From: Candidatus Latescibacterota bacterium
GTDB lineage: Bacteria > Latescibacterota > UBA2968
Direction of reading: 5' to 3'
DNA length: 64,000 bases
Assembly: GCA_965222605.1 (NCBI GenBank)
Contig: OZ244960.1
Span: 64,001-128,000, forward strand
Shown: one piece after another, positions 3,752 through 40,635 of the stretch
How the letters are laid out: every line of letters starts with the position of its first letter
Numbering within the stretch: the first letter of the stretch is position 1
The notes under the pieces: model-generated
Database searches by the model: none
Seen by the model: the letters and a program-made list of their open reading frames with translations, nothing else
Told to the model about the DNA's origin: nothing
Position numbers and translations under genes: made by a program

Positions 3752-5052
3752 TTCTTTTTAAATAAGATACGGATGGGTATGCCGAAAAAGTCAAACGCCT
3801 GTCTGAGCCTGCGCTCTAAAAATCGACGATAGTGCACGGGAACATCCTTGGGGCGCCCGGTAAAAAAGAGAATAGTTGGCGGTGCACTGCGCGGCATAAC
3901 GCAGAAAGACATGCGAAAGACCCGTCCATTTTTTGTAGGCGGAGCCGTTGTTGCATTGAGATGCGTCAAAAAGTCGTTCAAATCGCCCGTTGAAATGCGA
4001 TGCCGACGTTTCAGTGCCACATCCAAAGCCATATCAATAACGCGCCACGCGCGTTGCCCCGTAAGTGCCGAGAGAAAAACAATGGGATAGTTTTTGAGAT
4101 GTACAAAGCGCGAACGGATTTGTTGGGCTATTTTGTCGGCTGTGTGGCCGTCTTTTTCAACCAGATCCCATTTGTTGATGCCCACGATCAGCCCTTTGCC
4201 CAGCGCGACAGCGCGTTCTGAGATTTTGACATCCTGTACTGTACACCCTTCCACTGCATCAACCAGCACAATCGCCACATCGCATCGTTCAAGGCTTTCT
4301 ACGGTACGCAGCGAACTGTAAAAATCGACTTGCTCTTTAACGCGCGTTCGCCGTCTCAAACCCGCTGTGTCAACCAGAATAAATGGCCGTCCATTGCGTT
4401 CCATCGAGAGGTCAATCGCATCGCGTGTTGTTCCTGGAATTTCGCTCACCACTACCCGCTCCCGCCCCAGCAAGCGATTCACAAAGGTGGATTTACCCAT
4501 GTTCGGGCGGCCCAATACCGCGATTCGAGGAGGCAATTCTTCTTGTGAATCGCCTGCTTCTTCTGGCAAACATGTGAGGATGTCATCCAGCAAGTCACCC
4601 GATTGCCGCCCATTAATAGCAGAAACGCACAGCGGATCGCCAAGTGCGAGACCGTAAAAGGCCGTGCCATCGGCTTCGTTCTCATCTTTATCGACTTTGT
4701 TGACAATCAGCCGATAAGGTGCGCCCAAATCCCGGATCTTGCGCGCCATAATTGCGTCGTAATCCGTAGGACCAGTCTGTGCATCAACCACAAAGAGCAA
4801 CAGGTCTGCTTCCCCAAGGACAAGCTCGACCTGTCGGGAAACCAGATCGGTGATTATTTCGTCTGAATTGGGCACATATCCACCCGTATCGACTAATGTA
4901 AAGGTTCTGCCATTCCAGGTACACTGTGCATAGTTGCGATCGCGCGTGACACCGGGAAAGGCATCTACCACAGCTTTGCGCTCGCCAATCAGCCGATTAA
5001 AAAGCGTTGACTTGCCGACATTTGGCCGCCCCACAATCGCCACGACGCCCAT
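3748..5052 (-). CDS. der: Ribosome biogenesis GTPase Der (EngA)
   Basis: Two G domains (GRPNVGKS/DTGG/NKVD and GRPNMGKS/DTAG/NKWD) plus KH-like C-terminus. Confidence 0.97.
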   Translation of the reverse strand: MGVVAIVGRPNVGKSTLFNRLIGERKAVVDAFPGVTRDRNYAQCTWNGRTFTLVDTGGYVPNSDEIITDLVSRQVELVLGEADLLLFVVDAQTGPTDYDAIMARKIRDLGAPYRLIVNKVDKDENEADGTAFYGLALGDPLCVSAINGRQSGDLLDDILTCLPEEAGDSQEELPPRIAVLGRPNMGKSTFVNRLLGRERVVVSEIPGTTRDAIDLSMERNGRPFILVDTAGLRRRTRVKEQVDFYSSLRTVESLERCDVAIVLVDAVEGCTVQDVKISERAVALGKGLIVGINKWDLVEKDGHTADKIAQQIRSRFVHLKNYPIVFLSALTGQRAWRVIDMALDVALKRRHRISTGDLNDFLTHLNATTAPPTKNGRVFRMSFCVMPRSAPPTILFFTGRPKDVPVHYRRFLERRLRQAFDFFGIPIRILFKKK

Positions 5053-5055
5053 TGC

Positions 5056-6522
5056 CTAATTCTCCATCTGATGTGAGGAAATATACGGGTGCGCCACAAT
5101 CTCACTGCCTGCGCCCACAGAAGCCGACATACCACCAACGGCATTTTGAATGGTCTCCACCAAATCGTAAGTACCCACAATCGCCCGACATCCCACCTGC
5201 TGCTCCAGATCTTTGAGCAAGAGATCATCTAAAAATAGGCCATTGTGATTCAAGCAGTTGGGAGGTAAAAGAACGGTCTCATTGCTTCTGACACAGGCAT
5301 CTACAAGTGCGCGACCAATATCATTGCCCGACAGCAAGCCAGAAACCGTTATGCCCTTGCCAAGAAAACGATTGACGACTGGCACAACGCGAGCATCGAT
5401 CCAAGAAATTTGGTTCAAGCGTTTGACCATTGTATCTAAAAAATGCATCCCCAACATACCCGTTACAAGAACAAAACGCTGCGGCGGCAATGCTAAATTT
5501 TGGAGTTCCTCAATCCGATTCTCAAATCCATCGACAAAACGGCGAACCATGCCGATTCCGTTTTCGACAAGTGGAAACCCATCGTATTCAGATTGCGGCG
5601 GCACAGATTGGCCCGTCAGCAAATACATTTCATCGCCCAAATACACAAAGCGTGTGCCCAGACGTTTTTGGAGCATTTCCTGCCACGCTGTTATCTGGCG
5701 GATTGCCATGGCTGCATCGGCGTGCGTCACGCGGTTCAACCTGGGAAGATTTTTGCGAAATTTGGTCAAGCCCAGTGGCACAACCCCCACGGATTCAACG
5801 CGCGGATGACGCGCCGCAAGATCAAAAACCGTCTGTTTGAGTGCCTGACCATCGTTGATACCCGGGCACAATACCACTTGCGCGTGCATCTGAATTCCCT
5901 GCCTGGCTAAGATATCAATCCGATCCAAAACAGGTGTTGCCTGTCTGCGACCGAGCAACTCGGCTCGCAATTTGGGATCCGTGGCGTGAACCGAGATGTA
6001 CATTGGACTCAATTTTTGGTCAATAATGCGCTGAAATTCATCCTTAGAAAGGTTCGTCAGCGTGACATAAGCCCCATGTAGAAAAGACAATCGATAGTCG
6101 TCATCCTGGTAATACAGCGTTTTACGCAGACCTTTGGGCATCTGATGCAAAAAGCAAAAAACGCACTTGTTATCGCATTTGAGAATGGGCATATCTTCAA
6201 AATCCACGCCCAGATCGTCTTCAATATCTTTTTCAATCTCAAATAAAAATCGATCCTCGCCTCGCCGCACTAAGGCCGACACGTCTTCTTCACCCATGTG
6301 AAAACGGTAATCAATGGGATCGCGCACGGGATGTCCATTGATCGTTTCTACGACATCGCCGCGCTGCAACCCGATTGCTTCTCCAATCCCATCGGGATGT
6401 ACCAAACGGATTTGCAAACCGGTATCAACGCGTTCAACACTGCGTCGCCCCTCAACTTGTGCCCCTCTTATAACATCCATTTCGATTCCAGTAATTGATT
6501 GTTGGACAATGTAATATCCCAA
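5056..6522 (-). CDS. PDZ + radical-SAM-like Fe-S protein (DUF512 family)
   Basis: N-terminal PDZ-like region, CDNKCVFC (CxxxCxxC), DDDYRLSF, VLCPGIND and ENGIG motifs; start may be 6480. Confidence 0.85.
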   Translation of the reverse strand: MGYYIVQQSITGIEMDVIRGAQVEGRRSVERVDTGLQIRLVHPDGIGEAIGLQRGDVVETINGHPVRDPIDYRFHMGEEDVSALVRRGEDRFLFEIEKDIEDDLGVDFEDMPILKCDNKCVFCFLHQMPKGLRKTLYYQDDDYRLSFLHGAYVTLTNLSKDEFQRIIDQKLSPMYISVHATDPKLRAELLGRRQATPVLDRIDILARQGIQMHAQVVLCPGINDGQALKQTVFDLAARHPRVESVGVVPLGLTKFRKNLPRLNRVTHADAAMAIRQITAWQEMLQKRLGTRFVYLGDEMYLLTGQSVPPQSEYDGFPLVENGIGMVRRFVDGFENRIEELQNLALPPQRFVLVTGMLGMHFLDTMVKRLNQISWIDARVVPVVNRFLGKGITVSGLLSGNDIGRALVDACVRSNETVLLPPNCLNHNGLFLDDLLLKDLEQQVGCRAIVGTYDLVETIQNAVGGMSASVGAGSEIVAHPYISSHQMEN

Positions 6523-6750
6523 TAACTTATAAGTGTTCCTGAATTATCAAAACTTACGATAAAGCGAAAATAAGGTCAAGAAAAAAGCCGATTCTCCACT
6601 ATGCCCAAAGATTTAATATCTGACAAATTCAGAGCATCTCCTTATCTTGAATATAATCAAAATACAAAAAAAATTCTTCGGTCAACACGGTAGGTTATCC
6701 CCTTTGCGAATATATGAACGGATAACCCACTTTTGAAGAGGACACACCTC

Positions 6751-7443
6751 ATGCCCGATCACACCTGCATCTCAGTTATTATTCCGGTTTTTAACGAGCA
6801 GGATGCCATAGAAAAAGTAATTGGTGACATTCCCAGTGATCTACCTGCTGAAATCATCGTTGTCGATAATGGATCTACTGACCAAACCGCAAAATTAGCC
6901 GCCGCAATGGGCGCACGCATTGTTCGAGAAAATCGCCGGGGATACGGTTCTGCCTGCCTTGCGGGCATAGCAGCAACCAGGGAACCAGACATCGTCGTCT
7001 TTCTCGATGGCGACTACAGCGATCACCCCAACGAAATGTCAGATTTGATAGCGCCCATCCTGGAAAATCGCGCTGACCTCGTGATTGGCTCGCGCGTTTT
7101 GGGCAATAGCGAACCCGGTGCGCTGATGATTCAGGCGCGTTTTGGCAACCGTCTGGCCACCAGCCTTATCAAAATCCTCTTTGGCGTATCCTACACAGAT
7201 CTGGGACCTTTTCGAGCGATTCGCTATGGGACACTCATGGACTTAAATATGCGGGATAAAACTTTTGGATGGACAGTAGAAATGCAGGTCAAAGCAGCAA
7301 AACGGGCATTAAAAATACAAGAAGTGCCAGTAAGTTATAGAAAACGCATTGGCGTTTCCAAAATTACTGGCACTCTAAAAGGCACCCTCAAGGCAGGGTG
7401 GAAAATTTTATTTACAATTTTTAGGTACTGGTTTACAAAGTGA
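6751..7443 (+). CDS. Glycosyltransferase family 2 (DPM-synthase-like)
   Basis: VIIPVFNE, VVDNGSTD, FLDGD and TDLGPFR motifs. Confidence 0.9.
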   Translation: MPDHTCISVIIPVFNEQDAIEKVIGDIPSDLPAEIIVVDNGSTDQTAKLAAAMGARIVRENRRGYGSACLAGIAATREPDIVVFLDGDYSDHPNEMSDLIAPILENRADLVIGSRVLGNSEPGALMIQARFGNRLATSLIKILFGVSYTDLGPFRAIRYGTLMDLNMRDKTFGWTVEMQVKAAKRALKIQEVPVSYRKRIGVSKITGTLKGTLKAGWKILFTIFRYWFTK

Positions 7444-7470
7444 GACTAAAAGCTCCCCCATCCCCGCTTC

Positions 7471-7767
7471 TCACTTCTTTGTGTCATCTATATGCTGTTC
7501 CAAACGCTTGAGTGCTTCATCTATGCGAATGTGGTCTCCTCTGTGCCGAGTGCGTTGACGCGCAATTTGATCGGCAATATCAAATGCAGCCATCAGTGCA
7601 ATCTGGGTGGTATCACCTATATTTTCGGTCTCGGCAATTTCATGCATTTTTTCATCGACAAAATTTGAAATTTTAGAGGTATATTCCTCCGATTCCTCAC
7701 TGCTGAGTACATATTCAGAGCCAAAGATCATCACCTTGGTCTTATGTAAATCATCAGAATGGGACAT
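7471..7767 (-). CDS. zapA: Cell division protein ZapA family
   Basis: KVMIFGSEYVL...FVDEKMHEI...IALMAAFDIA followed by a coiled coil. Confidence 0.8.
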   Translation of the reverse strand: MSHSDDLHKTKVMIFGSEYVLSSEESEEYTSKISNFVDEKMHEIAETENIGDTTQIALMAAFDIADQIARQRTRHRGDHIRIDEALKRLEQHIDDTKK

Positions 7768-7839
7768 AGTATAACTTTACTTACGTTGTGCTGCGCGTGC
7801 AGCAGTCAGATTACCCAACTACCCCACCCCGCACTATGA

Positions 7840-30205: not shown

Positions 30206-31168
30206 ATGGGCAAAGTTACTGGTATTATTTTGGTATTAGTCGTTTCTGTTGGTGCGGCGGAAAAGCCGCAGATGTTGCGCGCCTGGGCAAAGGACCGCTG
30301 GGCTGTGGTGACGGTGCGCGAAGTTACCGGAACAGTCGTTGTTGTCAGCCCGGCCATAGGGCGAGAAATTGATTTTGATGAGGGCAATCGGTTGGGCGTT
30401 TTTCAAGGCATAACAGAATATACAAAGCGCAGCAACGTGCCCACATTGACACATCCGGTAACGGGATTTCAGTCTGCGGTATTTCTCAAATTGGCAGACG
30501 ATCAATATGGCATCTGTGTAACCTTTCGCGACGAAGCAGGCACGCGCTGTCGGTTGCTACACATTCGAGATGTAGAGGAATTGCATCGCATTCGAGATTA
30601 TATCCATCGAATGACCGATGTAAAGGCTGCACCGGACTATCCATTGGTAACAGACGAAAAAGCGACTTGTGACGTAATATCACCTGTTTATCGCGCCCAT
30701 GAGCGGTTGCAAGTAAAAATGGCGCTGACAGATGGCGAGAAAATAAAAGGTGAACTTTTGCCGATGCTGGAAGATGGGCAAATGCTCATCGACACGCCCC
30801 TGGGATTTCGACGGATCAAAGTGGGCGCAATTGATCAGATTCGCATTGCACCGCGCGGAGGCAAACGGATTGTGACTGAGACAATTCGGAGCGGCATGAA
30901 GTACGGCATTCTGGGCGGGATTACGGGATTACTCGCGGGCTTGTCATTTGGAGGCTTATCTGCCAAAGACGAAATGACTCTTGGCGCTCTATGGGGCGGG
31001 ACGGTTGGAGCTTCAGTCGGATTTTTAGATGGGTTGCTGTCAATTGAACGCGCCCGAACATTTCGATTTGAACATGGTGATGCCAATAAAAAACCGAAGA
31101 TCCGACTTTTACCGCAGCAATTAAAGCCCTCAAGGGCTATCTCTTTTATACTTTCTTTTTCTATTTAA
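30206..31168 (+). CDS. Secreted hypothetical protein with C-terminal Gly-zipper hairpin
   Basis: AAGGAG RBS, signal peptide, GILGGITGLLAG...GGTVGASVG. Confidence 0.7.
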   Translation: MGKVTGIILVLVVSVGAAEKPQMLRAWAKDRWAVVTVREVTGTVVVVSPAIGREIDFDEGNRLGVFQGITEYTKRSNVPTLTHPVTGFQSAVFLKLADDQYGICVTFRDEAGTRCRLLHIRDVEELHRIRDYIHRMTDVKAAPDYPLVTDEKATCDVISPVYRAHERLQVKMALTDGEKIKGELLPMLEDGQMLIDTPLGFRRIKVGAIDQIRIAPRGGKRIVTETIRSGMKYGILGGITGLLAGLSFGGLSAKDEMTLGALWGGTVGASVGFLDGLLSIERARTFRFEHGDANKKPKIRLLPQQLKPSRAISFILSFSI

Positions 31169-31197
31169 TTGTAACCCAATCTTCACTCGCGCTTAAT

Positions 31198-31272
31198 AAA
31201 GAAAAAGCCCTCCGCAAATTGCGTCACCCTTCTCGAGGCCGCAAACTCATCTCGTATGCAGAAGCTGGCTAA
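31198..31272 (+). pseudogene. rpoD: 3' stub of a primary sigma70 factor gene
   Basis: Reads KEKALRKLRHPSRGRKLISYAEAG*, the conserved end of sigma region 4.2; no upstream part of the gene. Confidence 0.75.
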
Positions 31273-31295
31273 CGCATTAATCCCTCCCAAAAGTG

Positions 31296-31334
31296 AAAAA
31301 GCCTCTGAAGCGTGTATTTTCAGAGGCTTTTTTT
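31296..31334 (+). terminator. Rho-independent terminator
   Basis: AAAAAGCCTCTGAA...TTCAGAGGCTTTTTTT. Confidence 0.85.
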
Positions 31335-31352
31335 AATATCTAACACCAAAAC

Positions 31353-31390
31353 TTGATTTGTCTGAGGTTGTTATGTACATTGCTGTACAT
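31353..31390 (+). promoter_or_regulatory. Sigma70 promoter with tandem TGTACA operator palindromes
   Basis: TTGATT-17-TACATT; TGTACA at 31374 and 31384, as in YefM-type operators. Confidence 0.65.
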
Positions 31391-31408
31391 AATCTGAAAG
31401 GAGGAAAA

Positions 31409-31642
31409 ATGAAAACTGTTACATCCACTGAATTTCGTCAGCATGCGACGGCGTATTTAAATGCTGTTGAACAGGGCGAGACGTTTCGTATATTGCGGCA
31501 CGGTAAACCTGTTGCTGATCTAAAACCCATAAAAACAAGCAACACCGTACCTTCCTGGAAACGGTGTATTGAACCGATCAAGTTAAGAGGTATTTCTGTT
31601 TCGGATATGATAGTAAAAGAAAGAGATGAGTACGGACGATGA
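31409..31642 (+). CDS. Phd/YefM-family antitoxin
   Basis: MKTVTSTEFRQHATAYLNAVEQGETFRILRHGKPVADL; AGGAGG RBS. Confidence 0.9.
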   Translation: MKTVTSTEFRQHATAYLNAVEQGETFRILRHGKPVADLKPIKTSNTVPSWKRCIEPIKLRGISVSDMIVKERDEYGR

Positions 31643-31695
31643 ATGCTTTTTTTGATTCTTCTGCCCTTGTCAAAAGATAGGTTGAAGATGATGGA
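31639..31695 (+). pseudogene. VapC/PIN toxin 5' stub with nonsense codon
   Basis: ATGA-coupled to the antitoxin; reads MNAFFDSSALVKR*VEDDG (VapC consensus FDSSALVKRYVxE). Confidence 0.8.
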
Positions 31696-31702
31696 GGTCG
31701 TT

Positions 31703-32302
31703 ATGAGATATTCGGGTATGGTATTCGCGGTGATCTCCTCCACGCTATTTTTATCTGGATGTGAGGATTCCGATTTTGGTGTTGCCAATTTTATGCTGCC
31801 GGTTTTTCCCGAAGGCACAGAAGTCGATCCAAATTTGTTCACGGGAACCTGGCACGGCATAGAGGATGATGCAATGGTAAAAATCGAGAAGGAGGGGAAA
31901 AGTGCCATGCGCGTGCATTTTACAAGCGCGTCCGATACCTTGCATTTTACCGGTACTGCGTTTGGCATTGACGGCCAGGTATTTTTCGATCTCTTCCCCG
32001 ATATTCCCGATGACGTGATGGAAAGGCTCAACTACCTGGTCATGTATCTTTTTCCCGTACATACGGTTGCAAAGGTTCGTTTGAGCGATACAACGATGGA
32101 TTTTGCGCTCATGGATCCGTTCAAACTCTACAGATTTCTCACACGGCAGGCCACAAGTGCGATACCCCATGTGAAGCCCGACGCGGGTTCTATCGCGATT
32201 ACGGCATCGCGTTTGGAGAATTACAATTTCCTCAAGACCCATGCCCATCAAATCGAGGGTTTGTTCGATGAGGTCATTACGCTGGTGCGAAGAGAACCCT
32301 GA
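31703..32302 (+). CDS. Hypothetical lipoprotein
   Basis: GGAGG RBS, lipobox LSGC. Confidence 0.75.
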   Translation: MRYSGMVFAVISSTLFLSGCEDSDFGVANFMLPVFPEGTEVDPNLFTGTWHGIEDDAMVKIEKEGKSAMRVHFTSASDTLHFTGTAFGIDGQVFFDLFPDIPDDVMERLNYLVMYLFPVHTVAKVRLSDTTMDFALMDPFKLYRFLTRQATSAIPHVKPDAGSIAITASRLENYNFLKTHAHQIEGLFDEVITLVRREP

Positions 32303-32381
32303 ATGCGGTTTTCTCTTTTCTTTTTTAGCTCTGCCTTATTTTTTTAAACCACTTTTTACAGAGACCAACAGGAGGCAAGCG

Positions 32382-32951
32382 ATGGACGTTTTGGAAGCTA
32401 TTCACACGCGGCGCACAATTTTTAAATTCAAACCGGGCGGTGTGCCCAAAGATGTGGTTGAAAAAATTTTTGAAGCCGGTCTGTGGGCGCCCAATCACCA
32501 TTTGACAGAACCGTGGCGATTTGTGGTGTTGGGAGAAGAGACCAAAGAAATACTGGCGCAACGCTACAGCGAAATTCAGGAGGAAAAAGCTGCAGAAAGT
32601 GCAAGCGACGAGGCCAGGCGGATATTAAAAGAAGCCGGTTATGCCAAGTTCATGTCAAAGCCAACAATTATTGCGGTGGCGTGTTTGCAAGATGGTGACG
32701 AAATAAAAAACAGAGAAGATTATGCGGCTACGTGTTGCGCCATGCAAAATGTACAGTTGGTTGCCTGGGCAGTAGGGGTTGGCATGCAGTGGAGCACGGG
32801 GCCGATTACATTGGAAGAAAACACCTACAAATTATTGAGTGTAGATACTGAGAACGAATATATTATCGGATTTTTCTACACCGGATATCCCGATGAAATT
32901 CCAGAACCGAGGCGAAAACCCCTCGAAGAGGTGATGAGCTGGACGGATTGA
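32382..32951 (+). CDS. Nitroreductase family protein (YdjA-like)
   Basis: AIHTRRTI, WAPNHHLTEPWRF and AMQNVQL..W..GVGMQWST motifs. Confidence 0.9.
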   Translation: MDVLEAIHTRRTIFKFKPGGVPKDVVEKIFEAGLWAPNHHLTEPWRFVVLGEETKEILAQRYSEIQEEKAAESASDEARRILKEAGYAKFMSKPTIIAVACLQDGDEIKNREDYAATCCAMQNVQLVAWAVGVGMQWSTGPITLEENTYKLLSVDTENEYIIGFFYTGYPDEIPEPRRKPLEEVMSWTD

Positions 32952-32962
32952 TTCCGCTAACC

Positions 32963-33748
32963 ATGGATGGTTTTGAATTTTTTGTTTTGTATCGCCTGCC
33001 CTACCTCACATGCCCTTTCTATCTTATCATGTTGGGCGTGCGAATATGGGTGTGGATGCGGTTTTACAACCCTGCGCTCAAGCTATTGCCATGGGCCAGA
33101 GGATCTGTATATGGCGTATGGAAGCGGCAGTACCGCCCAACCATTCACATTTTCCCAGGATCTCGCTCACAGGGAACGGAATGGAAGCGCGCAATAAAGG
33201 GCTTTGTTTTTTTTACCGGCCTATACAAACGCGACAAAGTGCTATGGCTGGGTTCCTGGTCGCTCCATTTGGGGCTATTTCTGGTAATCGTTGCTCATGT
33301 GCGCGTGATTTTGCCGCCTGACCAGGAGCTGATCTGTTTGCGCGTCGCATTGACCGGCAGTGGACTGATGACTGTATCGGGCACATATTTGTTGCTTCGT
33401 CGAATAATCGTACAGCGCGTACGAGAAATTACAGACTTTCGGGACTATCTGGCGGAGTTCATCCTCCTGTCCTTTTCTGCGACAGCATTTCTCGTAGTAT
33501 TAGATAGCGGCGTGTCATCCGAGGCCCTGCGCCACTATATGTCTGGCCTATTGACGGGCACAACGGCAGTTATTGAAGTCCAACGCATTTTTGTCTGGCA
33601 CATGCTCGCCGCACAGCTCTTGTTGATCGTGATCCCATTTTCCCATCTGTTGCATTTGGGTGGGATTTTTTTGAGCCGCGAATTTTTGGGCACATCCGAT
33701 ACATTTGCAGGGGATTTTGGACCGGAATTCAAGGATAGACAGGATTAA
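32963..33748 (+). CDS. DsrM/NarI-like diheme cytochrome b membrane subunit
   Basis: About five TM helices; His pairs LHLGL...AHVR and WHML...PFSHLLH; RRI...VREIT...DY motif; alternative TTG start at 32948. Confidence 0.82.
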   Translation: MDGFEFFVLYRLPYLTCPFYLIMLGVRIWVWMRFYNPALKLLPWARGSVYGVWKRQYRPTIHIFPGSRSQGTEWKRAIKGFVFFTGLYKRDKVLWLGSWSLHLGLFLVIVAHVRVILPPDQELICLRVALTGSGLMTVSGTYLLLRRIIVQRVREITDFRDYLAEFILLSFSATAFLVVLDSGVSSEALRHYMSGLLTGTTAVIEVQRIFVWHMLAAQLLLIVIPFSHLLHLGGIFLSREFLGTSDTFAGDFGPEFKDRQD

Positions 33749-33768
33749 CATCCGCAGGGATTGAACGA

Positions 33769-35103
33769 ATGGAACGCGAAAAAAAATACATTCCATCAGG
33801 CATGGTTGGCACGTATATGCGGCGCATTGCCGAATCGGATCCGTTTGTCCGAGAGATTCAGGATGAACCGTCGGCGTTGCGTTTGTACATGGATACCTGT
33901 ACCAAATGTGGGGTTTGCGCGCAGGAATGCCCGGTGTATTACGGGCAGCCCGATAAGCGCATGCACCCTGTGGAACGCTCTCGACAAGTGATTCGTTTAT
34001 ATAAAAAGTACACGACATTTTGGGGGCGATTCTGGAACGCCATTTTCCCAAAACCAGATTTTGAAAATAACGATGCCGAATTGTTTTCCGAGCGCATGTA
34101 CGAGTGTTTGACCTGTCGGCGGTGTGCGGCATTTTGTCCTGTGGGAATCGATCATTCGGTGGTTTCCCGCGTTGGACGCTCGCTTGTCGATTTGATGGGG
34201 CTGACGCCACCATCCCTGGCACAGGGCACGCACAATTCGTTTGAAACGGGCAATTTGGAAGGTGCGTCGCCCGAGGCATTTTTGGATGCGATTCAATTTA
34301 TCGAAGAGGAACTCAGGGAAGAAACAGGACGAAATATTTCCATTCCCTTAGACCGCGAAGGCGCGGAAATTTTCTTTTTACCACCGTCGGGCGATGTGCT
34401 GGTTTATGCTGAAAACTTAATGGGCATGGCGAAAATTTTTCACGCCATCGGCGCCGATTGGACAATGAGTTCGCGGGCATTTGACGGATCGAATTTCGGA
34501 TTTACGACCGGCAACAACTTTTCGATGAAGTACGAGAACAAGCACTACATCGACGCGTGCGAAAAATTGGGATGTAAACTCATGGTGATGGGCGAATGCG
34601 GGCATGCGTATCGGGTGATGAAGTTTATGGCCTGCGAAGGGCACTGGTGGGGCACATTGCCTTTTGAGATTACCAGTGGATTTGAATATACGGCGCAACT
34701 TATTCGCGCGGGCAACCTGAAATTGGACCCGGATAAAAATCCCGATTCTGTGACCTATCACGACGCTTGCCAATTTGCTGCCGGGTGTGGAATTGTTGAG
34801 GAACCCCGAGAGATTTTGAAAGCGGCCTGTGCCGATTACCGCGAGATGCCCGATGGCGGGTACACGCAGTGGTGTTGTGGTGGTGGCGGCGGGTTGTCGG
34901 CACTGCGCTCGGTGCGCGCATTTCGGATGGAGGTCTCGGGAAAAAAGAAAGCAGAGCAAATGCGCCAGACCGATGCGAAGATCGTATCCACTTCGTGTTT
35001 GCAGTGCCGCACACAACTCAAAGAAATTGCGCGCTATCACAAAATGCCACTAAAAATTACGGGTGTACACGAGTTGGTAAACAATGCGATTCTACTGGAA
35101 TAG
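33769..35103 (+). CDS. DsrK/HdrD-like Fe-S protein with CCG domain
   Basis: CTKCGVCAQEC and CLTCRRCAAFCP ferredoxin motifs; GECGH, YHDAC, WCCGGGGG and CLQC. Confidence 0.85.
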   Translation: MEREKKYIPSGMVGTYMRRIAESDPFVREIQDEPSALRLYMDTCTKCGVCAQECPVYYGQPDKRMHPVERSRQVIRLYKKYTTFWGRFWNAIFPKPDFENNDAELFSERMYECLTCRRCAAFCPVGIDHSVVSRVGRSLVDLMGLTPPSLAQGTHNSFETGNLEGASPEAFLDAIQFIEEELREETGRNISIPLDREGAEIFFLPPSGDVLVYAENLMGMAKIFHAIGADWTMSSRAFDGSNFGFTTGNNFSMKYENKHYIDACEKLGCKLMVMGECGHAYRVMKFMACEGHWWGTLPFEITSGFEYTAQLIRAGNLKLDPDKNPDSVTYHDACQFAAGCGIVEEPREILKAACADYREMPDGGYTQWCCGGGGGLSALRSVRAFRMEVSGKKKAEQMRQTDAKIVSTSCLQCRTQLKEIARYHKMPLKITGVHELVNNAILLE

Positions 35104-35113
35104 CCGATAGCTC

Positions 35114-36289
35114 ATGTCTCATTTAATTTACATGGACAATGCGGCAACGACGTTTCCAAAGCCCCCCAATGTGCTGGAAGACGCGCTGGCGTTTTATCGA
35201 AAATACGGGGTGAACCCCGGGCGCAGTGGCATGGATTTAGCGCGGGAGGCCGAGGCTATGGTTGCCGAGGCGCGTGCATCACTCGCATCGTTTTTGGGGG
35301 CTACGGGCAGTCCCGATCAGCTGGTGTTTACACACAATGCCTCAGATGCGTTGAATATTGCGATTCAGGGCACGTTGAAATCCGGCGATCACGTAATTAC
35401 AACGCTTCTGGATCACAACTCGGTTTTGCGCCCGATTTACCATCTCTCAAAATATGAAGGAATTGAGACGACTTATGTGGGCTTTGGGGCGGATGGCTTT
35501 GCCGACCCCGCCGATATTGCCAGAGCGATCAGACCAAATACAAAACTCGTGGTAATGACCCATGCATCCAATGTACTGGGCACTGTGCAGCCCGTAGCAG
35601 CAGTCGGCGCAATCTGTCGCGCACGCGGTGTAATTTTCTGCGTTGATGTGGCGCAAACAGCGGGTATGTTGCCCATTGATATGGAGGCGATGCAGGCCGA
35701 TATTTTGTGTTTTACCGGACACAAGTCACTCATGGGACCAACGGGTACTGGTGGGATGTACGTGCGCAAAGGCGTGGCGATTGCACCGTTGCGATACGGC
35801 GGGACGGGTGTGCGATCCGAGTATCCCGATCATCTGGACGAGTATCCCTGGCGATTGGAGTGTGGCACGGGCAATCTGATGGGCATTGCAGGGTTGTTGT
35901 ACGCGCAGAAATGGATGCGATGCGAAGGCGTAGAAAATATTCATGCACGCGAGATGGCTTTGTTCAAACAACTGGTCAATGGCCTGCGCGAAGTCGATGG
36001 AACCATTTTGTATTGCGCTGAAAATCTCGATCAACACGTACCTGTACTGTCGGTCAATATCGAAGGGATGACAGCGAACAATGTAGGTACATTACTGGAT
36101 GTAAAGTTCAATGTGGCAACGCGCACGGGATTGCAATGCGCGCCAAAGGTACATGAGATATTGGGCACGAAAGCGATGAAGGGCACCGTGCGCCTTTCGT
36201 TGGGTCCCTTCAATACCGAAGCACAGATTGAGACTGTGATCGAGGGCTTGAGCGATATTTCCAAAAGACACGGGCGAAGTAGTGTATGA
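35114..36289 (+). CDS. Cysteine desulfurase / selenocysteine lyase family (class V PLP enzyme)
   Basis: YMDNAATT, HNSV, HASNV, TGHKSL (PLP Lys) and RTGLQCAP catalytic Cys. Confidence 0.9.
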   Translation: MSHLIYMDNAATTFPKPPNVLEDALAFYRKYGVNPGRSGMDLAREAEAMVAEARASLASFLGATGSPDQLVFTHNASDALNIAIQGTLKSGDHVITTLLDHNSVLRPIYHLSKYEGIETTYVGFGADGFADPADIARAIRPNTKLVVMTHASNVLGTVQPVAAVGAICRARGVIFCVDVAQTAGMLPIDMEAMQADILCFTGHKSLMGPTGTGGMYVRKGVAIAPLRYGGTGVRSEYPDHLDEYPWRLECGTGNLMGIAGLLYAQKWMRCEGVENIHAREMALFKQLVNGLREVDGTILYCAENLDQHVPVLSVNIEGMTANNVGTLLDVKFNVATRTGLQCAPKVHEILGTKAMKGTVRLSLGPFNTEAQIETVIEGLSDISKRHGRSSV

Positions 36290-36341
36290 AGGCGAGTAAT
36301 TCGAGCATGACTGCACCAGCAGGTAAAAGGTCAGGTGAGGA

Positions 36342-36665
36342 ATGGCGTATGAAATTGTGACGCTGGGTGGCAAAGAAATTGAGGTGGATGAAGATGGATT
36401 TGTCCAACAGCCCGAGTTGTGGGATGAAGATGTGGCGCGCGATCTGGCCCAACAAGATGGCATTGAAGAGATGAGTGAGGATCACTGGCAAGTGGTGTAT
36501 TATATCCGCAATTATTGGTTGAAATTTGAGATCGCCCCATTGATCCGCCGCTTATGTAAGGAGACGGAGAAAGATATCGATACGATTTACGATCTGTTTT
36601 CCGCAGGCCCCGCCGATGGCGCGTGTAAAATCGCGGGCTTGCCAACTCCTACTGGCTGTACATGA
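36342..36665 (+). CDS. DsrC/TusE family sulfur carrier with both C-terminal cysteines
   Basis: VDEDGF...HWQVVYYIR...LF..GPA..ACKIAGLPTPTGC (CX10C). Confidence 0.9.
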   Translation: MAYEIVTLGGKEIEVDEDGFVQQPELWDEDVARDLAQQDGIEEMSEDHWQVVYYIRNYWLKFEIAPLIRRLCKETEKDIDTIYDLFSAGPADGACKIAGLPTPTGCT

Positions 36666-36703
36666 CCGCTAAACTAAAAATAAGACAACAAATGAGGCCA
36701 AAG

Positions 36704-36970
36704 ATGTCGTCTATAATGATTGAATGCCCTGCCAACATTCTGGATGCGCTAAAAGAAACCCCTGATGAATTTGCGCGAGAAGCACGGATACTTTTGGCAG
36801 CAAAGCTATATGAAATTGGTCGCTTATCTTCAGGGCGAGCTGCAGAACTCGCAGGCCTGGGTAGGGTGGCTTTTTTTGATATGTTGAAGTCGTACAAAGT
36901 ACCTGTCGCAAATTTAACCCGTGAAGAGTTGAAAAAGGACTTTGAGAGTGCCAGAAAGATGCGTGGTTGA
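36704..36970 (+). CDS. UPF0175-family antitoxin-like protein
   Basis: LAAKLYEIGRLSSGRAAELAGL.RVAFF..L motif. Confidence 0.85.
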   Translation: MSSIMIECPANILDALKETPDEFAREARILLAAKLYEIGRLSSGRAAELAGLGRVAFFDMLKSYKVPVANLTREELKKDFESARKMRG

Positions 36971-37010
36971 TACATCTGCACTACAATATCTTTTTCGCAT
37001 TGATCAACTC
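36948..37010 (+). pseudogene. DUF3368/PIN toxin 5' stub
   Basis: GTG overlapping the antitoxin end reads MPERCVVDTSALQYLFRIDQL, then runs into the convergent gene. Confidence 0.7.
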
Positions 37011-37906
37011 TGCTCTGTACGCGCTTGAATATTCGACATATCTTCAATAATCGTGAGCAAACCCGAGTGGTCAAGTTCGCCCCGACCTTTGACCATTGCG
37101 GTCTTGAAAAGCTCAAAAACCTCGCTGGTAACGGGCAAGGGCACGTCGAAATCATTGCTTGTCTTTTGGATGATATTGAGGTCTTTATAGTGCAGACGAA
37201 TGCGAAAGCCGGGATCAAAATCGCCGTTGACCATGCGTTCGCCCCTGTTTTCAAGGACGCCACAGCGAGCGAGGCCCCCGCTGAGCACCTGAACGATTTT
37301 AATCGGATCAACACCCGCTTTGGTGCCCATTGTGAGGGCTTCGGACACGCCAGCAATGGTGACAGCAACGAGGATTTGATTGCACGCTTTCACGGTTTGC
37401 CCCGCGCCGAGAGGGCCACACAAAATCGCACTTTGGCCCATGATATCAAAAAGCGGTTTGACCGTATTGAACGTATCTTCATCGCCGCCAACCATAATGG
37501 AAAGGGTGGCGTTTTGAGCGCCGATGTCGCCGCCGCTGACGGGTGCATCAAGGCTTTGGACGCCTTTTTTTGCGAGTGCCTCCCCTACCTGTGTGGTGAC
37601 ACTGGGCGCAATCGTGCTCATATCGACGAAAATCAGGCCCTCGTGCGCGCCTTCAATAATGCCGCCCTCGCCCAAAGCAACACTCTCAACATCGGGCGAA
37701 TCGGGCAACATAGTGATAAGGATATCGCTTTGCTCTGCCACCTCTTTGCCAGAGTGCGCTTCTGCTGCTCCTTTTCCCACGAGTTCATCGACCGCATCGC
37801 GATTGCGGTTGTGTACGACGAGTTCATATCCAGCATCTATCAAATGACTGGCCATCGGCTTCCCCATAATTCCAAGACCGATAAATCCAATTTTTGGTTT
37901 TGACAT
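37004..37906 (-). CDS. 2-hydroxy-3-oxopropionate reductase (GarR/GlxR family)
   Basis: GFIGLGIMGKPMA, DAPVSGGDIGA, GAGQTVKACNQ and FRIRLHYKDL motifs. Confidence 0.9.
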   Translation of the reverse strand: MSKPKIGFIGLGIMGKPMASHLIDAGYELVVHNRNRDAVDELVGKGAAEAHSGKEVAEQSDILITMLPDSPDVESVALGEGGIIEGAHEGLIFVDMSTIAPSVTTQVGEALAKKGVQSLDAPVSGGDIGAQNATLSIMVGGDEDTFNTVKPLFDIMGQSAILCGPLGAGQTVKACNQILVAVTIAGVSEALTMGTKAGVDPIKIVQVLSGGLARCGVLENRGERMVNGDFDPGFRIRLHYKDLNIIQKTSNDFDVPLPVTSEVFELFKTAMVKGRGELDHSGLLTIIEDMSNIQARTEQS

Positions 37907-38041
37907 GTGTTAAATCCCTTTCAATAGATGGTTTCTCTTATCCTGCGGCCTGCGATAAATATAATCGCCTGCTCCCCATTCCTCAACTTCAATCGGCAAA
38001 AAACTATCGGCGGACACTCCTGGTTTGTTCATTTTTACTTC

Positions 38042-39009: not shown

Positions 39010-39840
39010 TCAGTCAATAAATAACGGCTGATCGGATCGCGGTACAATACCCGCTTCTTCTGCCCGCGCAAAAAGATCGACTAGCGCAGCCTCGCCATCT
39101 GCACCGTAATCCAACGTGTATTCATTGACGTAGAGATCGATATGTTGCTGCATCACAGCTTCGTCCATCTCCTGTGCGTAATGGCGGATATAATTTTTAA
39201 CCGAATCGGGGTTGGTATGTGCATATTCTACACTGGCGCAAAGAGATACATCAATTTGTTGAATTTTTTCTTTGCCGAGATCGCGTCGGGCAAGAATACC
39301 GCCGAGCGGAATGGGATGCCCCGTAGTTACCTCCCACCATTCGCCCAGGTCAATAACCTTGTGCAAGCCATAATCGGGATAGGTAAATCGCGATTCGTGG
39401 ATGATCACGCCGGCATCAACATCGCCTTTTTGCGTGGCCTCCATAATCTCGTGAAAAGGCATTGCGACGAGGTTGTCAAGTGCAGGATTAAAGAGACGCA
39501 GCAAGAGCGCGGCTGTGGTGAGTTTGCCGGGAATGGCAATGCGTTTGCTCAACAGATCGCGCGGATCGAGGGCATCAGACGCGATAACAAGCGGTCCACA
39601 CCCACGCCCCAATGCCCCGCCTGAATGCAGCAGACAATACCGGTCGCGCATAAATGCAAAGGCATGGAATGATATCTTGGTCATATCCAATTTACCAGCC
39701 ATAGCCATGCGATTCAGGGTCTCGATATCTTCGAGAATCTCGCGGTATCTGGGTGCGCCATCAATTTTCCCGTGAACCAGACCGTAAAAAATATACGTGT
39801 CATTGGGACAAGGAGAATAACCGAGAGAAATGCGGGACAT
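39010..39840 (-). CDS. mqnD: 1,4-dihydroxy-6-naphthoate synthase (futalosine pathway)
   Basis: SPCPNDTYIF, GALGRGCGP, IIHESRFTY, PIPLG and HIDLYVN motifs. Confidence 0.92.
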   Translation of the reverse strand: MSRISLGYSPCPNDTYIFYGLVHGKIDGAPRYREILEDIETLNRMAMAGKLDMTKISFHAFAFMRDRYCLLHSGGALGRGCGPLVIASDALDPRDLLSKRIAIPGKLTTAALLLRLFNPALDNLVAMPFHEIMEATQKGDVDAGVIIHESRFTYPDYGLHKVIDLGEWWEVTTGHPIPLGGILARRDLGKEKIQQIDVSLCASVEYAHTNPDSVKNYIRHYAQEMDEAVMQQHIDLYVNEYTLDYGADGEAALVDLFARAEEAGIVPRSDQPLFID

Positions 39841-39868
39841 TGTGTACCTCATGTCATGTGATTTATCC

Positions 39869-39912: not shown

Positions 39913-40635
39913 CTACCCCAATGCTTCAATGAATTTTCGCGCTGCGATTTGCACGCGCTGAACAGATCGGGGAATATCCCAGGCGTCTTTATTTCGGTCT
40001 TCCACGCGGTTGCTGATAGCACGCAGTTCGAGGAATGGAACCGCATAAAGGGTACAAATATGCGCCGCGGCCGCGCCCTCCATATTTTCGCATATCGCCT
40101 TGAAACGCGCTGCCAGTTCATTTCCAATATCCTCGCGTCCCGTACATTGTTGCACCGTGACAAAAGGACCTTGCACAACATGTTCGCCCGATTGTTCGAG
40201 TATGTGTTGCGCTTTGGCGACAAGCGTGGGATCGAGAGAATACGTATTGTAATAATCGCGGTTGGTCGATAGGACGGGAATGCCGATCTCATCGGCAGGA
40301 AACCAGCCAGCAGATGTGATAACGCCTAAATCGCCATAATTTTCTTCGGTCGCAAGTGCGAGATCGCCTTTGTCCAGGCCACTGTCGAGATAAGCACCGC
40401 CAATGCCGATTTGCAGGACGAGTTTGGGATCGATTTCTTGCAGTGCAACAGTCAGAGCCTGCGCCGTATTGACCGCGCCAATACCCGTTTCAACAAGAAC
40501 AACGGGCCTGATGCCAATCAGGCCGCGAACCCAGGCGCGATGTCCCATGCGTTGTGTCGTCACCTGTTGAAGGCTGTCGCGCAAACGCTGTTGCTCATAA
40601 GCCGTAGCTGTCAGGACGATCAAAAGATCGGGCAT
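39913..40635 (-). CDS. mqnB: Futalosine hydrolase
   Basis: TGIGAVNTA, GIGGAY, ENMEGAA and RAISNRVEDR motifs; adjacent to mqnD. Confidence 0.9.
   Translation of the reverse strand: MPDLLIVLTATAYEQQRLRDSLQQVTTQRMGHRAWVRGLIGIRPVVLVETGIGAVNTAQALTVALQEIDPKLVLQIGIGGAYLDSGLDKGDLALATEENYGDLGVITSAGWFPADEIGIPVLSTNRDYYNTYSLDPTLVAKAQHILEQSGEHVVQGPFVTVQQCTGREDIGNELAARFKAICENMEGAAAAHICTLYAVPFLELRAISNRVEDRNKDAWDIPRSVQRVQIAARKFIEALG

Follow-up and report, generated by a model that had tools for sequence, protein, structure and literature searches.

Among the closest described systems are the DsrMK and DsrMKJOP complexes of sulfate and sulfite reducers, in which a dihaem cytochrome b of NarI type, bearing four conserved histidines, is associated with a two-Cys DsrC that carries a CX10C arm. 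Their cytoplasmic component combines two ferredoxin motifs with one CCG motif and a GECGH motif, and DsrMK-only gene arrangements are described (PMC10861901). The DsrMKJOP complex of A. fulgidus is reported to have menadiol:DsrC-trisulfide oxidoreductase activity, releasing sulfide (PMC10861901), and in DsrMK-only complexes, DsrM is predicted to retain an open quinol site resembling that of NarI (preprint 10.64898/2026.08.25.746951). A desulfurase is reported to start the E. coli IscS-TusA-TusBCD-TusE-MnmA relay, which feeds a DsrC/TusE-family carrier via its penultimate cysteine, and E. coli IscS together with cysteine persulfurates the penultimate cysteine of A. vinosum DsrC in vitro (both PMC3397948).

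A cytochrome b anchor joined to a cytoplasmic CCG disulfide reductase is also found in HdrDE of methanogens and in the Tmc and Hmc complexes of sulfate reducers. HdrD of methanogens contains two CCG motifs. Cysteine desulfurases are known to work with dedicated acceptors, as in the SufS–SufE and CsdA–CsdE pairs, and dedicated desulfurases are common beside Fe-S enzymes, with NifS as the textbook case.

The operon considered here lies in a window of 64,000 nucleotides (the whole stretch of DNA that was analysed) from a Candidatus Latescibacterota genome. All five co-directional open reading frames of the original prediction, spanning 32382–36665 on the plus strand, are present as described (Table 1), with intergenic gaps, calculated from the ORF coordinates, of −4, 20, 10, and 52 nt. 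A cysteine desulfurase (CSD) is encoded between the DsrK-like protein and DsrC; to our knowledge, no known dsr cluster has such an enzyme at that place. A literature search found no account of a desulfurase–DsrC–DsrMK-like system of this kind without DsrAB, and the operon suggests that cysteine-derived sulfur is handled by a route not yet described. The two-Cys DsrC, the four-histidine cytochrome b, and the motifs of the cytoplasmic protein are all shared with DsrMK/DsrMKJOP, as is the DsrMK-only gene arrangement (PMC10861901). Menaquinone genes were claimed to lie about 2.3 kb away, and MqnB and an MqnA/MqnD-family gene are indeed encoded 2.3 kb downstream on the minus strand. Contigs from RNA libraries cover only parts of four of the operon genes, a coverage from which transcription is not provable.

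Table 1. Operon genes and nearby menaquinone genes, numbered by position in the window.
Gene product	Position	Strand	Profile evidence
Nitroreductase-family flavoprotein	32382..32951	+	PF00881, 92.4 bits
DsrM/NarI-like membrane dihaem cytochrome b	32948..33748	+	PF02665 Nitrate_red_gam, 45.8 bits (cut-off 22.9)
DsrK-like CCG iron-sulfur protein, cytoplasmic	33769..35103	+	Fer4_8 and CCG domains; best NCBIfam match DsrK, 315 bits
PLP-dependent cysteine desulfurase (CSD), class-V aminotransferase	35114..36289	+	TIGR01977, 412.5 bits (cut-off 377)
Two-Cys DsrC	36342..36665	+	PF04358, 113.9 bits
MqnA/MqnD-family gene	39010-39852	-	PF02621, 274 bits
MqnB	39913-40635	-	TIGR03664, 216 bits

The source genome is closed (6.34 Mb), and the presence or absence of genes was judged across all of it. 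Profile searches found no dsrA or dsrB above cut-off, weak matches being confined to a NirA-family sirohaem-type protein encoded 4.6 Mb from the cluster and adjoining moaA; dsrA was found in none of the 31 genomes of this Latescibacterota family. The absence of dsrAB claimed from the window thus extends to the closed genome, as does that of dsrEFH: no DsrE-family protein is encoded, and hence neither DsrEFH nor TusBCD. TusA is likewise missing from the genome, so that the canonical Tus relay is lacking, and mnmA, correctly said to be absent from the window, sits 1.5 Mb away. The genome contains only one DsrC gene and only one DsrK-like gene. Three further desulfurases are encoded elsewhere—IscS, SufS with SufBD, and a NifS-like enzyme—making the operon CSD a fourth, extra and dedicated copy.

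Within the family, the DsrM–DsrK–CSD–DsrC core occurs in the same order in all 24 untruncated loci, down to 74–75% DsrK identity, and DsrC is present in 27 of the 30 other genomes. The desulfurase is therefore a conserved member of the cluster, in support of the original prediction. All operon genes are under strong purifying selection, with dN/dS values of 0.02–0.21 over five pairwise comparisons (0.045–0.10 for the nitroreductase). Of 24 related loci, 17 have the nitroreductase, which had been counted as part of the operon, immediately upstream, three have it displaced by 1.2–3.1 kb, and four lack it; it is an accessory gene outside the conserved core.

The operon cytochrome b scores 54 bits against the DsrM profile NF038037 (cut-off 300). 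Its His107, His117, His218, and His236 are invariant in 25/25 family sequences and are also kept in 21/21 sequences that take in the sister module described below. E. coli NarI accounts for each of the top eight PDB matches to its AlphaFold model (pLDDT 77.7, pTM 0.75), with E 2e-4 to 9e-4 and TM 0.55–0.70, and this DsrM/NarI-like protein is proposed to be the quinol-oxidising anchor. The CCG protein scores 315 bits against the DsrK profile NF045796 (cut-off 400), 217 bits against TmcB, and 197 bits against HmcF. Invariant features are two four-Cys ferredoxin motifs, the GECGH motif (Cys277 and His279), and cysteines 334, 369, 370, 410, and 413 of a single CCG domain. The last CCG position is Cys in the operon protein but Asp in five of five canonical DsrKs, and in the tree the operon protein branches apart from canonical DsrK and sister to a second DsrMK module (support 95*). 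Judged by its sequence, the DsrK-like protein is a paralogue and not a canonical DsrK, so the 'DsrMK' identity originally assigned has to give way to that of a paralogous pair. The sub-cut-off scores of both subunits, together with the Cys in place of Asp, mean that the substrate may differ from DsrC trisulfide. The operon differs from HdrDE and Tmc/Hmc (TmcB/HmcF motif as given in PMC10861901) in having one CCG motif rather than the two of HdrD, in lacking cytochrome c subunits, and in its proposed substrate, a protein, the desulfurase-loaded DsrC.

The second DsrMK module is found in dsrAB-positive bacteria at 29 loci in eight or more phyla, and four of five of its host genomes contain dsrA. 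Its DsrK is the nearest to the operon protein (47–53% identity), and it shares with the operon both the four-His DsrM and the Cys at the last CCG position. In its DsrC-like protein, however, CysB is replaced by Phe or Tyr, whereas the operon DsrC is of the two-Cys type. Also encoded in the module are a tandem DsrC–DsrC protein with no C-terminal arm and, in many cases, a Cys-rich HTH_17/MerR regulator. CSD is present at none of the 29 loci, and thus this DsrMK lineage is not by itself tied to a desulfurase.

The C-terminal arm of the operon DsrC reads Cys95-X10-Cys106, followed by Thr; the full CX10C arm first noted is thereby verified, and both cysteines are kept in 25/25 relatives. The closest relatives of solved structure are DsrCs that partner DsrAB, namely 1ji8 (E 4e-31), followed by 1sau and 2v4j, whereas for 7syb, a chain titled 'Sulfurtransferase', E is only 1e-7. 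The family DsrC also groups with dsr-linked DsrCs in the tree (support 90/92, not starred). In CSD, Lys204 and Cys342 are invariant across 59 sequences. Structure models of a CSD dimer with DsrC score 0.65, 0.66, and 0.62, with 0.00 for the best control; of 80 solved complexes 58 attain this mark, as do 2 of 110 mismatched pairs, a calibration that is only rough for a complex modelled with custom alignments and three chains. The runs have at least 63% of contacts in common, with a partner pLDDT of 86. The predicted interface joins CSD residues 320–331 and 385–386, together with residues 41 and 44 from the other CSD copy, to DsrC residues 67–72, 78–83, and 87–92, which form the base of the C-terminal arm; confidence is confined to the arm base, with no confident contact at Cys106. 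Binding between CSD and DsrC is thus supported by modelling. The pair resembles SufS–SufE and CsdA–CsdE in placing a dedicated desulfurase beside a small cysteine-bearing acceptor, but DsrC has an unrelated fold and two redox-active cysteines and is linked to a quinol-dependent reductase.

Outside the Latescibacterota, 71 loci encode CSDs 50–57% identical to that of the operon. DsrC adjoins CSD in 26 and a CCG protein in 23, with one or both in 30 and neither nearby in 41; both cysteines are present in all 34 CSD-adjacent DsrCs of the alignment. The CCG partners belong to different lineages, TmcB/HmcF-like (310 and 299 bits) and forming two clades, and occur with a weakly TmcC-like membrane protein. 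No dsrA was found in five tested genomes of other phyla with the linkage. The same CSD subfamily is therefore found beside two-Cys DsrCs and/or CCG reductases in dsrA-less phyla, and the linkage recurs independently across phyla. selD was found in one of five genomes of other phyla bearing the CSD–DsrC(–CCG) linkage; one of the four without it carries the locus on a record of 3.5 Mb titled 'chromosome'.

In the reading that we favour, and to which we give an even chance, CSD would load DsrC and the DsrMK-like pair would recycle DsrC with menaquinol, the four core genes forming one sulfur-redox module without a sulfite reductase. CSD, the proposed donor, would draw sulfane sulfur from L-cysteine, with alanine as the other product, and leave a persulfide on the penultimate Cys106 of DsrC, which would serve as sulfur carrier and redox substrate. 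Cys95 would then resolve this persulfide, as the strict keeping of both cysteines suggests, with sulfide being freed or handed on and DsrC left as an intramolecular disulfide or trisulfide. By analogy with DsrMK(JOP), the DsrK-like protein—the proposed DsrC disulfide/trisulfide reductase—would use its single non-cubane cluster and GECGH cysteine to return DsrC to the reduced state, with electrons from menaquinol oxidised by the NarI-like cytochrome. Overall, this would amount to cysteine + menaquinol → alanine + H2S + menaquinone, with organic sulfur feeding either a membrane-linked sink or a controlled supply of sulfide. The 'respiration' and 'detoxification' first suggested are candidate roles; menaquinol-driven reduction of a protein disulfide may, however, be thermodynamically unfavourable. 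Of the original interpretation, which is supported in part, the conserved CSD, the missing dsrAB, and (in the model) the CSD–DsrC contact stand; canonical DsrMK and a nitroreductase within the core do not, and a role for selenium is weakened.

It is rather unlikely, though the most serious of the competing readings, that the module is anabolic, with CSD loading DsrC for a TusE-like delivery to a thiolation enzyme (of tRNA, a cofactor, or Fe-S assembly) and the DsrMK-like pair merely repairing a by-product disulfide. The operon DsrC does fall within the TusE/DsrC family (TIGR03342, 109 bits), the genome encodes MnmA, seven of the 71 foreign loci pair CSD with DsrC but no adjoining CCG gene, and a desulfurase likewise opens the Tus relay; against this, DsrC scores 76.5 against the TusE equivalog (cut-off 191), mnmA is unlinked, TusA and TusBCD are missing, and the cluster contains no conserved acceptor enzyme. 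CysB, needless for a plain persulfide relay, is retained in all 34 aligned CSD-adjacent DsrCs, and a membrane quinol-linked reductase would be an odd repair device for anabolism. Those same seven loci, and the modelled CSD–DsrC contact, also weigh against CSD being a NifS-like sulfur source for the Fe-S clusters of the DsrK-like protein, with DsrC receiving its sulfur from, for example, polysulfide, thiosulfate, or a NirA-like reductase. Precedent for dedicated desulfurases, the CCG proteins adjoining CSD (without DsrC in four of the 71 loci), and the NirA-family protein favour this arrangement, but IscS and a full Suf system are already present and the NirA-like gene is remote, and we consider it improbable.

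That DsrC and a DsrMK paralogue simply outlived the loss of dsrAB, with no coherent function shared with the desulfurase, is hardly credible. The grouping of the family DsrC with dsr-linked DsrCs would fit such a history, as would the canonical DsrK and DsrC encoded by another Latescibacterota genome; purifying selection on all genes, the fixed gene order, and the building of the same linkage with other CCG lineages elsewhere speak against it. Only marginally better placed is a selenium route, in which CSD would be a selenocysteine lyase, DsrC would carry a perselenide, and the reductase would free selenide for SelD. SclA is the second-best NCBIfam match of CSD, the SclA of E. faecalis is reported to prefer selenocysteine (preprint 10.1101/2020.02.07.939272), and the source genome has a selD with an in-frame TGA. 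The SclA score is, however, 323 bits against a cut-off of 525, while that of TIGR01977 is passed, and the scarcity of selD among cluster-bearing genomes of other phyla makes a selenium role unlikely, weakening the selenium loading of DsrC once suggested. Nor do selD and the cluster co-vary within the family: selD occurs in 30 of 31 genomes, including all three that lack the cluster, and the single genome without selD does carry it.

The original prediction described five co-directional open reading frames, a description that proves accurate and with which the family scores agree. All on the plus strand, they encode a nitroreductase, a DsrM-like membrane protein, a DsrK-like protein with a CCG domain (a cysteine-rich Fe-S motif), a cysteine desulfurase (CSD) and DsrC, with intergenic gaps of -4, 20, 10 and 52 nt; a promoter and terminator scan of positions 31000-38000 remained at shuffle level (9 against 8.7 and 12 against 7.8, respectively) and gave no operon boundary. 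DsrC with two arm cysteines and DsrMK are regarded as hallmarks of DsrAB-based dissimilatory sulfur metabolism. Here, two-cysteine DsrC is tied to a dedicated CSD and a predicted quinol-linked CCG reductase in genomes without DsrAB, and we propose a DsrC/DsrMK-type cycle in which a desulfurase stands in for DsrAB. One Latescibacterota family has this arrangement, and several other phyla have a convergent version of it.

Features of the cluster, its surroundings and related loci (L-numbers are loci of relatives; G000 is the genome holding the window and C1 its contig; G169 is the genome of L087)
Feature	Position	Strand	Details
Whole cluster	window:32382-36665	+	five genes
Nitroreductase-family protein		+	first cluster gene; PF00881
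DsrM-like membrane protein		+	266 aa; PF02665 Nitrate_red_gam 45.8 bits (cut-off 22.9)
DsrK-like protein		+	444 aa; two ferredoxin-type motifs, one CCG domain
CSD		+	391 aa; class-V aminotransferase; TIGR01977 'cysteine desulfurase family'
DsrC		+	107 aa; PF04358 113.9 bits (cut-off 24.9)
MqnB	downstream of cluster	-	TIGR03664, 216 bits
MqnA/MqnD-family gene	downstream of cluster	-	PF02621, 274 bits
TPR protein	window:28085-30178	+	697 aa; GWxTD domain, 58 bits
Phd/YefM-type antitoxin-like gene	window:31358-31642	+	small gene
UPF0175-type antitoxin-like gene	window:36662-36970	+	small gene
MauE/DoxX-like membrane protein	window:38042-38968	-	PF07291, 70 bits; CxxC motif in C-terminal part
NirA-family protein	L001:778-3000 (G000:C1 about 4738918-4741140)	-	740 aa; 280 bits, under cut-off; adjoins moaA
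selD	G000:C1:3613020-3613943		outside window; one in-frame TGA
dsr-type genes of G169	C1:592585-593832, C1:913343-914773, C1:916817-917110		
DsrM-like gene of a family member	L050:2628-3395		in-frame stop
CSD-adjacent DsrC, Acidobacteriota record	L136:6187-6495		in-frame stop
Second DsrMK module	L061-L089, L054:2348-5659		examples L088:3762-8019, L072:4866-8063
CSD clades without DsrC or CCG neighbour	L119:4234-6510, L100:4270-6149, L112 and L099 around 4178-7807		

The premise of a sulfur relay without DsrAB holds at the scale of the closed genome (6.34 Mb, completeness 98.7%): neither dsrA nor dsrB scores over cut-off, and thus the co-occurrence of DsrC with DsrAB is absent. The sole weak dsrA and dsrB matches fall in the NirA-family protein, the only sirohaem-type reductase encoded. 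The whole genome holds one DsrC-family gene and one DsrK-like gene. The DsrE family (PF02635) has no match in the closed genome, and hence there is no DsrEFH or TusBCD; TusA (PF01206) likewise has none, and MnmA is encoded far from the cluster. Three further desulfurases lie elsewhere—IscS, adjoining an ApbC/Mrp-type carrier, SufS, accompanied by SufB and SufD, and a NifS-like enzyme—and the CSD of the cluster is therefore an additional, dedicated enzyme.

DsrC, which also exceeds the curated cut-off of TIGR03342 (109.4 bits against 53.5), ends in Cys95-X10-Cys106-Thr. Both arm cysteines, the penultimate Cys106 (CysA) and Cys95 (CysB), are invariant in 25/25 family sequences and in all 36 aligned DsrCs. 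According to PMC3397948, CysB is restricted, with few exceptions, to DsrAB-bearing organisms. On the TusE equivalog NF008562, the protein reaches 76.5 bits against a cut-off of 191, and the TusE partners TusBCD and TusA are those missing from the closed genome. Its nearest solved structures are DsrAB-partner DsrCs, led by that of P. aerophilum (1ji8, E 4e-31) and followed by those of A. fulgidus and D. vulgaris, while a chain named 'Sulfurtransferase' (7syb) reaches only 1e-7. The CSD passes its family model (412.5 bits, cut-off 377) and falls short of the SclA selenocysteine-lyase model NF040779 (323 bits, cut-off 525). Lys204, within a His-Lys motif, and Cys342 are invariant in 59/59 sequences, an alignment into which 50 of 71 CSDs from other lineages were taken; these are presumably the PLP lysine and the catalytic cysteine.

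The DsrM-like protein scores 54 bits on the DsrM equivalog NF038037 (cut-off 300). Its His107/His117 and His218/His236 are invariant in 25/25 family sequences and in a further comparison of 21 sequences that included a second type of DsrMK module and two additional DsrM-like proteins; we take their spacing to be that of the NarI haem ligands. In a Foldseek search against the PDB, the AlphaFold model (pLDDT 77.7, pTM 0.75) had E. coli NarI as all of its top eight matches (probability 1.00, E 1.8e-4 to 9e-4, TM 0.55-0.70), and on this model the protein probably adopts the NarI fold. Among NCBIfam models, the DsrK-like protein matches DsrK (NF045796) best, with 315 bits (cut-off 400); TmcB (217) and HmcF (197) come next. 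On NF045796, 707-744 bits are reached by the canonical DsrKs of five genomes that carry dsr genes. Both four-cysteine motifs, GECGH and the five CCG cysteines are shared without exception by the family and the 50 other sequences compared. The GECGH motif contains the proposed catalytic cysteine (PMC10861901 and a 2026 preprint). The last CCG position is Cys413 here and a cysteine in all seven family relatives compared, as in every other non-canonical DsrK lineage compared, and an aspartate in 5/5 canonical DsrKs; PMC10861901 reports this aspartate for many DsrKs of sulfate reducers. A PDB sequence search with the DsrK-like protein returned no DsrK structure, the sole match being the CCG part of M. 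smegmatis EtfD (9ojn).

Within the family, the gene order is fixed: DsrM-DsrK-CSD-DsrC recurs in 24/24 untruncated related loci (two further loci end inside DsrK), and this core is retained down to 74-75% DsrK, 65-67% CSD and 41-44% DsrM identity. The nitroreductase lies directly upstream in 17 of these 24 loci, is displaced in three and absent from four, and is thus an accessory gene. Among 168 genomes of the phylum, DsrC of at least 73% identity was confined to the family, where 27 of the 30 other genomes have it; two further families have, between them, five distant DsrCs (37-40% identity). All 31 family genomes, many of them single-contig, lack dsrA. Pairwise dN/dS against five relatives is 0.02-0.21 across all five genes. 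One family member carries a DsrM-like gene with an in-frame stop (L050), which could reflect sequencing error, pseudogene formation or recoding. Another Latescibacterota genome, G169, encodes a canonical DsrK (744 bits) and a DsrC (128.6 bits) and has a dsrB-like match and a dsrA match of only 50 residues; therefore, Dsr genes do occur in Latescibacterota beyond this family.

First DsrK scans of genome contigs recovered almost only close relatives, and wider reach came from searching 1.84 billion representatives exhaustively by HMMER with the DsrK-like protein, after which P0001 and the CSD alignment served as queries. Across these representatives, one cluster (P0001) stands at 52% identity and the next best at 40%. 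P0001-type DsrKs were located in 29 loci, with record titles of Gemmatimonadota, Planctomycetota, Elusimicrobia, Myxococcota, Zixibacteria, Desulfobacteria, Calditrichaeota, LCP-89 and others. They mark an uncharacterised, widespread second DsrMK module of dsrAB-positive bacteria in eight or more phyla: dsrA is over cut-off in four of five such genomes, and a canonical DsrK (707-744 bits) lies elsewhere in all five. The module comprises DsrM, DsrK, a DsrC-like protein with Phe or Tyr in place of CysB and an extra cysteine in an FPCG motif, and a tandem DsrC-DsrC protein in which CysB is retained but the C-terminal arm is missing; a Cys-rich HTH_17/MerR-type regulator is frequent, and a CSD was found in 0/29 loci.

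In a DsrK tree of 54 rows, the family forms one clade (support 100, starred) that is sister (95, starred) to this second module, represented by 20 rows (17 of the 29 loci plus three genome loci identical to three of them). It stands apart from canonical DsrK and two archaeal sequences, as well as from the TmcB-like clades linked to CSDs in other phyla, for which 13 of 23 CCG genes were taken in. In a DsrC tree of 48 rows, the family DsrC groups with the dsr-linked DsrCs of the bacteria carrying the second module (support 90/92, not starred, for a short protein). Judging by these placements, the cluster appears to be a mosaic that unites a DsrMK paralogue with a DsrC of respiratory type and a recruited desulfurase.

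Beyond the phylum, the CSD-alignment scan showed a related association. Of the best 80 among 575 relatives, nine belong to the family itself; the remaining 71 come from different lineages and are 50-57% identical. Within this best 80, an adjacent DsrC accompanies 26 of the 71 foreign loci and an adjacent CCG protein 23 (both in 19, DsrC only in seven, the CCG protein only in four and neither in 41). The commonest foreign form among them joins DsrC, a 204-aa membrane protein (a weak TmcC-like match), a TmcB/HmcF-like CCG protein (310 and 299 bits, DsrK 221) and the CSD, under record titles of Holophagaceae, Geothrix, Thermoanaerobaculia, Eisenbacteria, Fibrobacteraceae and Clostridia; CSD-DsrC pairs alone occur, again among the best 80 of 575, in Aminicenantes/Saccharicenans, Bacteroidales and Eubacteriales records. 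All 34 CSD-adjacent DsrCs aligned possess both cysteines. In five foreign CSD-DsrC(-CCG) genomes tested, dsrA was absent, including one with the locus on a 3.5 Mb record titled 'chromosome'. On the CSD tree, from whose family set L021 was left out, the linkage label is strongly clustered (nine changes against 32 in shuffles), but kin share labels, and the tree does not resolve a sister relationship between the family CSD clade and the other DsrC-linked clade. CSDs of one subfamily are thus joined to two-cysteine DsrC and to CCG proteins of at least three lineages, and this recurrent joining is the strongest argument that CSD, DsrC and CCG protein act together. The CSD clades with neither neighbour, some of them titled Sulfomarinibacteraceae, have either a GntR/FCD regulator with BolA or NUDIX and PDZ proteins next to them, and these neighbours give no functional hint. 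The in-frame stop in the CSD-adjacent DsrC of an Acidobacteriota record (L136) could be a sequencing error, a pseudogene or recoding.

Binding of DsrC by the CSD is supported by complex prediction with two CSD copies and one DsrC, each with its own alignment (59 and 36 rows). The models scored 0.65, 0.66 and 0.62 and all three controls 0.00. In a calibration of different setup, 58 of 80 solved complexes attained that mark, as did 2 of 110 mismatched pairs. The runs have at least 63% of contacts in common, with a partner pLDDT of 86. Predicted confident contacts involve CSD residues 320-331 and 385-386, plus 41 and 44 of the second protomer, and DsrC residues 67-72, 78-83 and 87-92, the conserved face at the base of the arm; the arm cysteines lie outside them. 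No solved desulfurase-DsrC complex is known to us, and the score is therefore unlikely to reflect a memorised structure. At the RNA level, contigs from four libraries of one sponge metagenome study match pieces of the nitroreductase, DsrM-like, DsrK-like and CSD genes at 99-100% (zero to a few differences), with DsrC and several other bins left uncovered, and two contigs bridge the nitroreductase/DsrM junction. These are compatible with transcription of the cluster, and also with DNA carry-over.

Three precedents underlie a three-step reading. DsrC trisulfide is the product of DsrAB, and A. fulgidus DsrMKJOP reduces it with menadiol, releasing sulfide (PMC10861901); an open NarI-like quinol site has been predicted for the DsrM of DsrMK-only complexes (2026 preprint); and the penultimate cysteine of A. 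vinosum DsrC is persulfurated in vitro by IscS and cysteine (PMC3397948). By analogy, the CSD would load sulfur onto Cys106 of DsrC; Cys95 would resolve the persulfide, or a trisulfide would form; and the DsrK-like protein would regenerate DsrC with electrons from menaquinol passed through the cytochrome b. Such a cycle could serve as an electron sink, as a sulfide supply or for sulfane detoxification. The cysteine in place of aspartate in the CCG motif, together with the odd DsrC-like partners of the second module, calls for caution, as this DsrK lineage may act on something other than a trisulfide.

A biosynthetic relay, in which sulfur passes from the CSD through DsrC to an acceptor, is possible; every known partner of such a relay is missing, however, and the retention of CysB would go unexplained. 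It is hard to square a CSD acting only in the maturation of DsrK clusters with CSD-DsrC pairs that have no CCG gene, or with the predicted CSD-DsrC interface. The original prediction had also allowed for selenium in place of sulfur. The in-frame TGA of selD recurs in 30 of 31 family genomes, and the lineage therefore uses selenocysteine, but selD is present there whether or not the cluster is, and in only one of five foreign CSD-DsrC(-CCG) carriers, which weakens this idea and argues against a general selenium role, although selenium may still play a part in this genome. That the cluster is a decaying remnant is ruled out by purifying selection and fixed gene order.

If the proposed DsrC/DsrMK-type cycle is real, DsrC cycling gains a sulfur donor other than DsrAB, amino-acid sulfur becomes linked to the respiratory quinone pool, and dsrC/dsrMK matches in metagenomes are to be read differently. 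A broader reading, which we consider unlikely, is that the module conducts a widespread, energy-conserving 'organic sulfane-sulfur respiration' in bacteria that reduce neither sulfate nor sulfite, with cysteine-derived sulfur on DsrC as terminal acceptor for the menaquinone pool. Candidate respirers of this kind may include sponge-associated Latescibacterota, Holophagaceae, Thermoanaerobaculia, Eisenbacteria, Fibrobacterota and some Clostridia; were it true, two-cysteine dsrC and dsrMK-like genes in metagenomes would be no proof of DsrAB-type sulfur metabolism. The proposed cycle lends itself to a direct test, since only four proteins, soluble or membrane-bound, are involved, and Holophagaceae, which carry a related cluster, have cultured members. 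No published description of a desulfurase-DsrC-DsrK cluster was found in full-text literature searches, although supplements or the 2014 DsrC review may mention one; the accessible main text of PMC10504309, PMC8528874 and PMC10579422 does not cover it.

Several flanking genes merit mention. The antitoxin-like genes stand one on either side of the cluster; the UPF0175 gene overlaps the DsrC stop codon and is found in only 4 of 24 related loci, and is therefore an insertion outside the system. Upstream, the TPR protein is syntenic in most relatives. The MauE/DoxX-like gene, located between the cluster and the mqn genes, also keeps its synteny in most relatives, and its product may be a quinone-linked thiol-disulfide protein.
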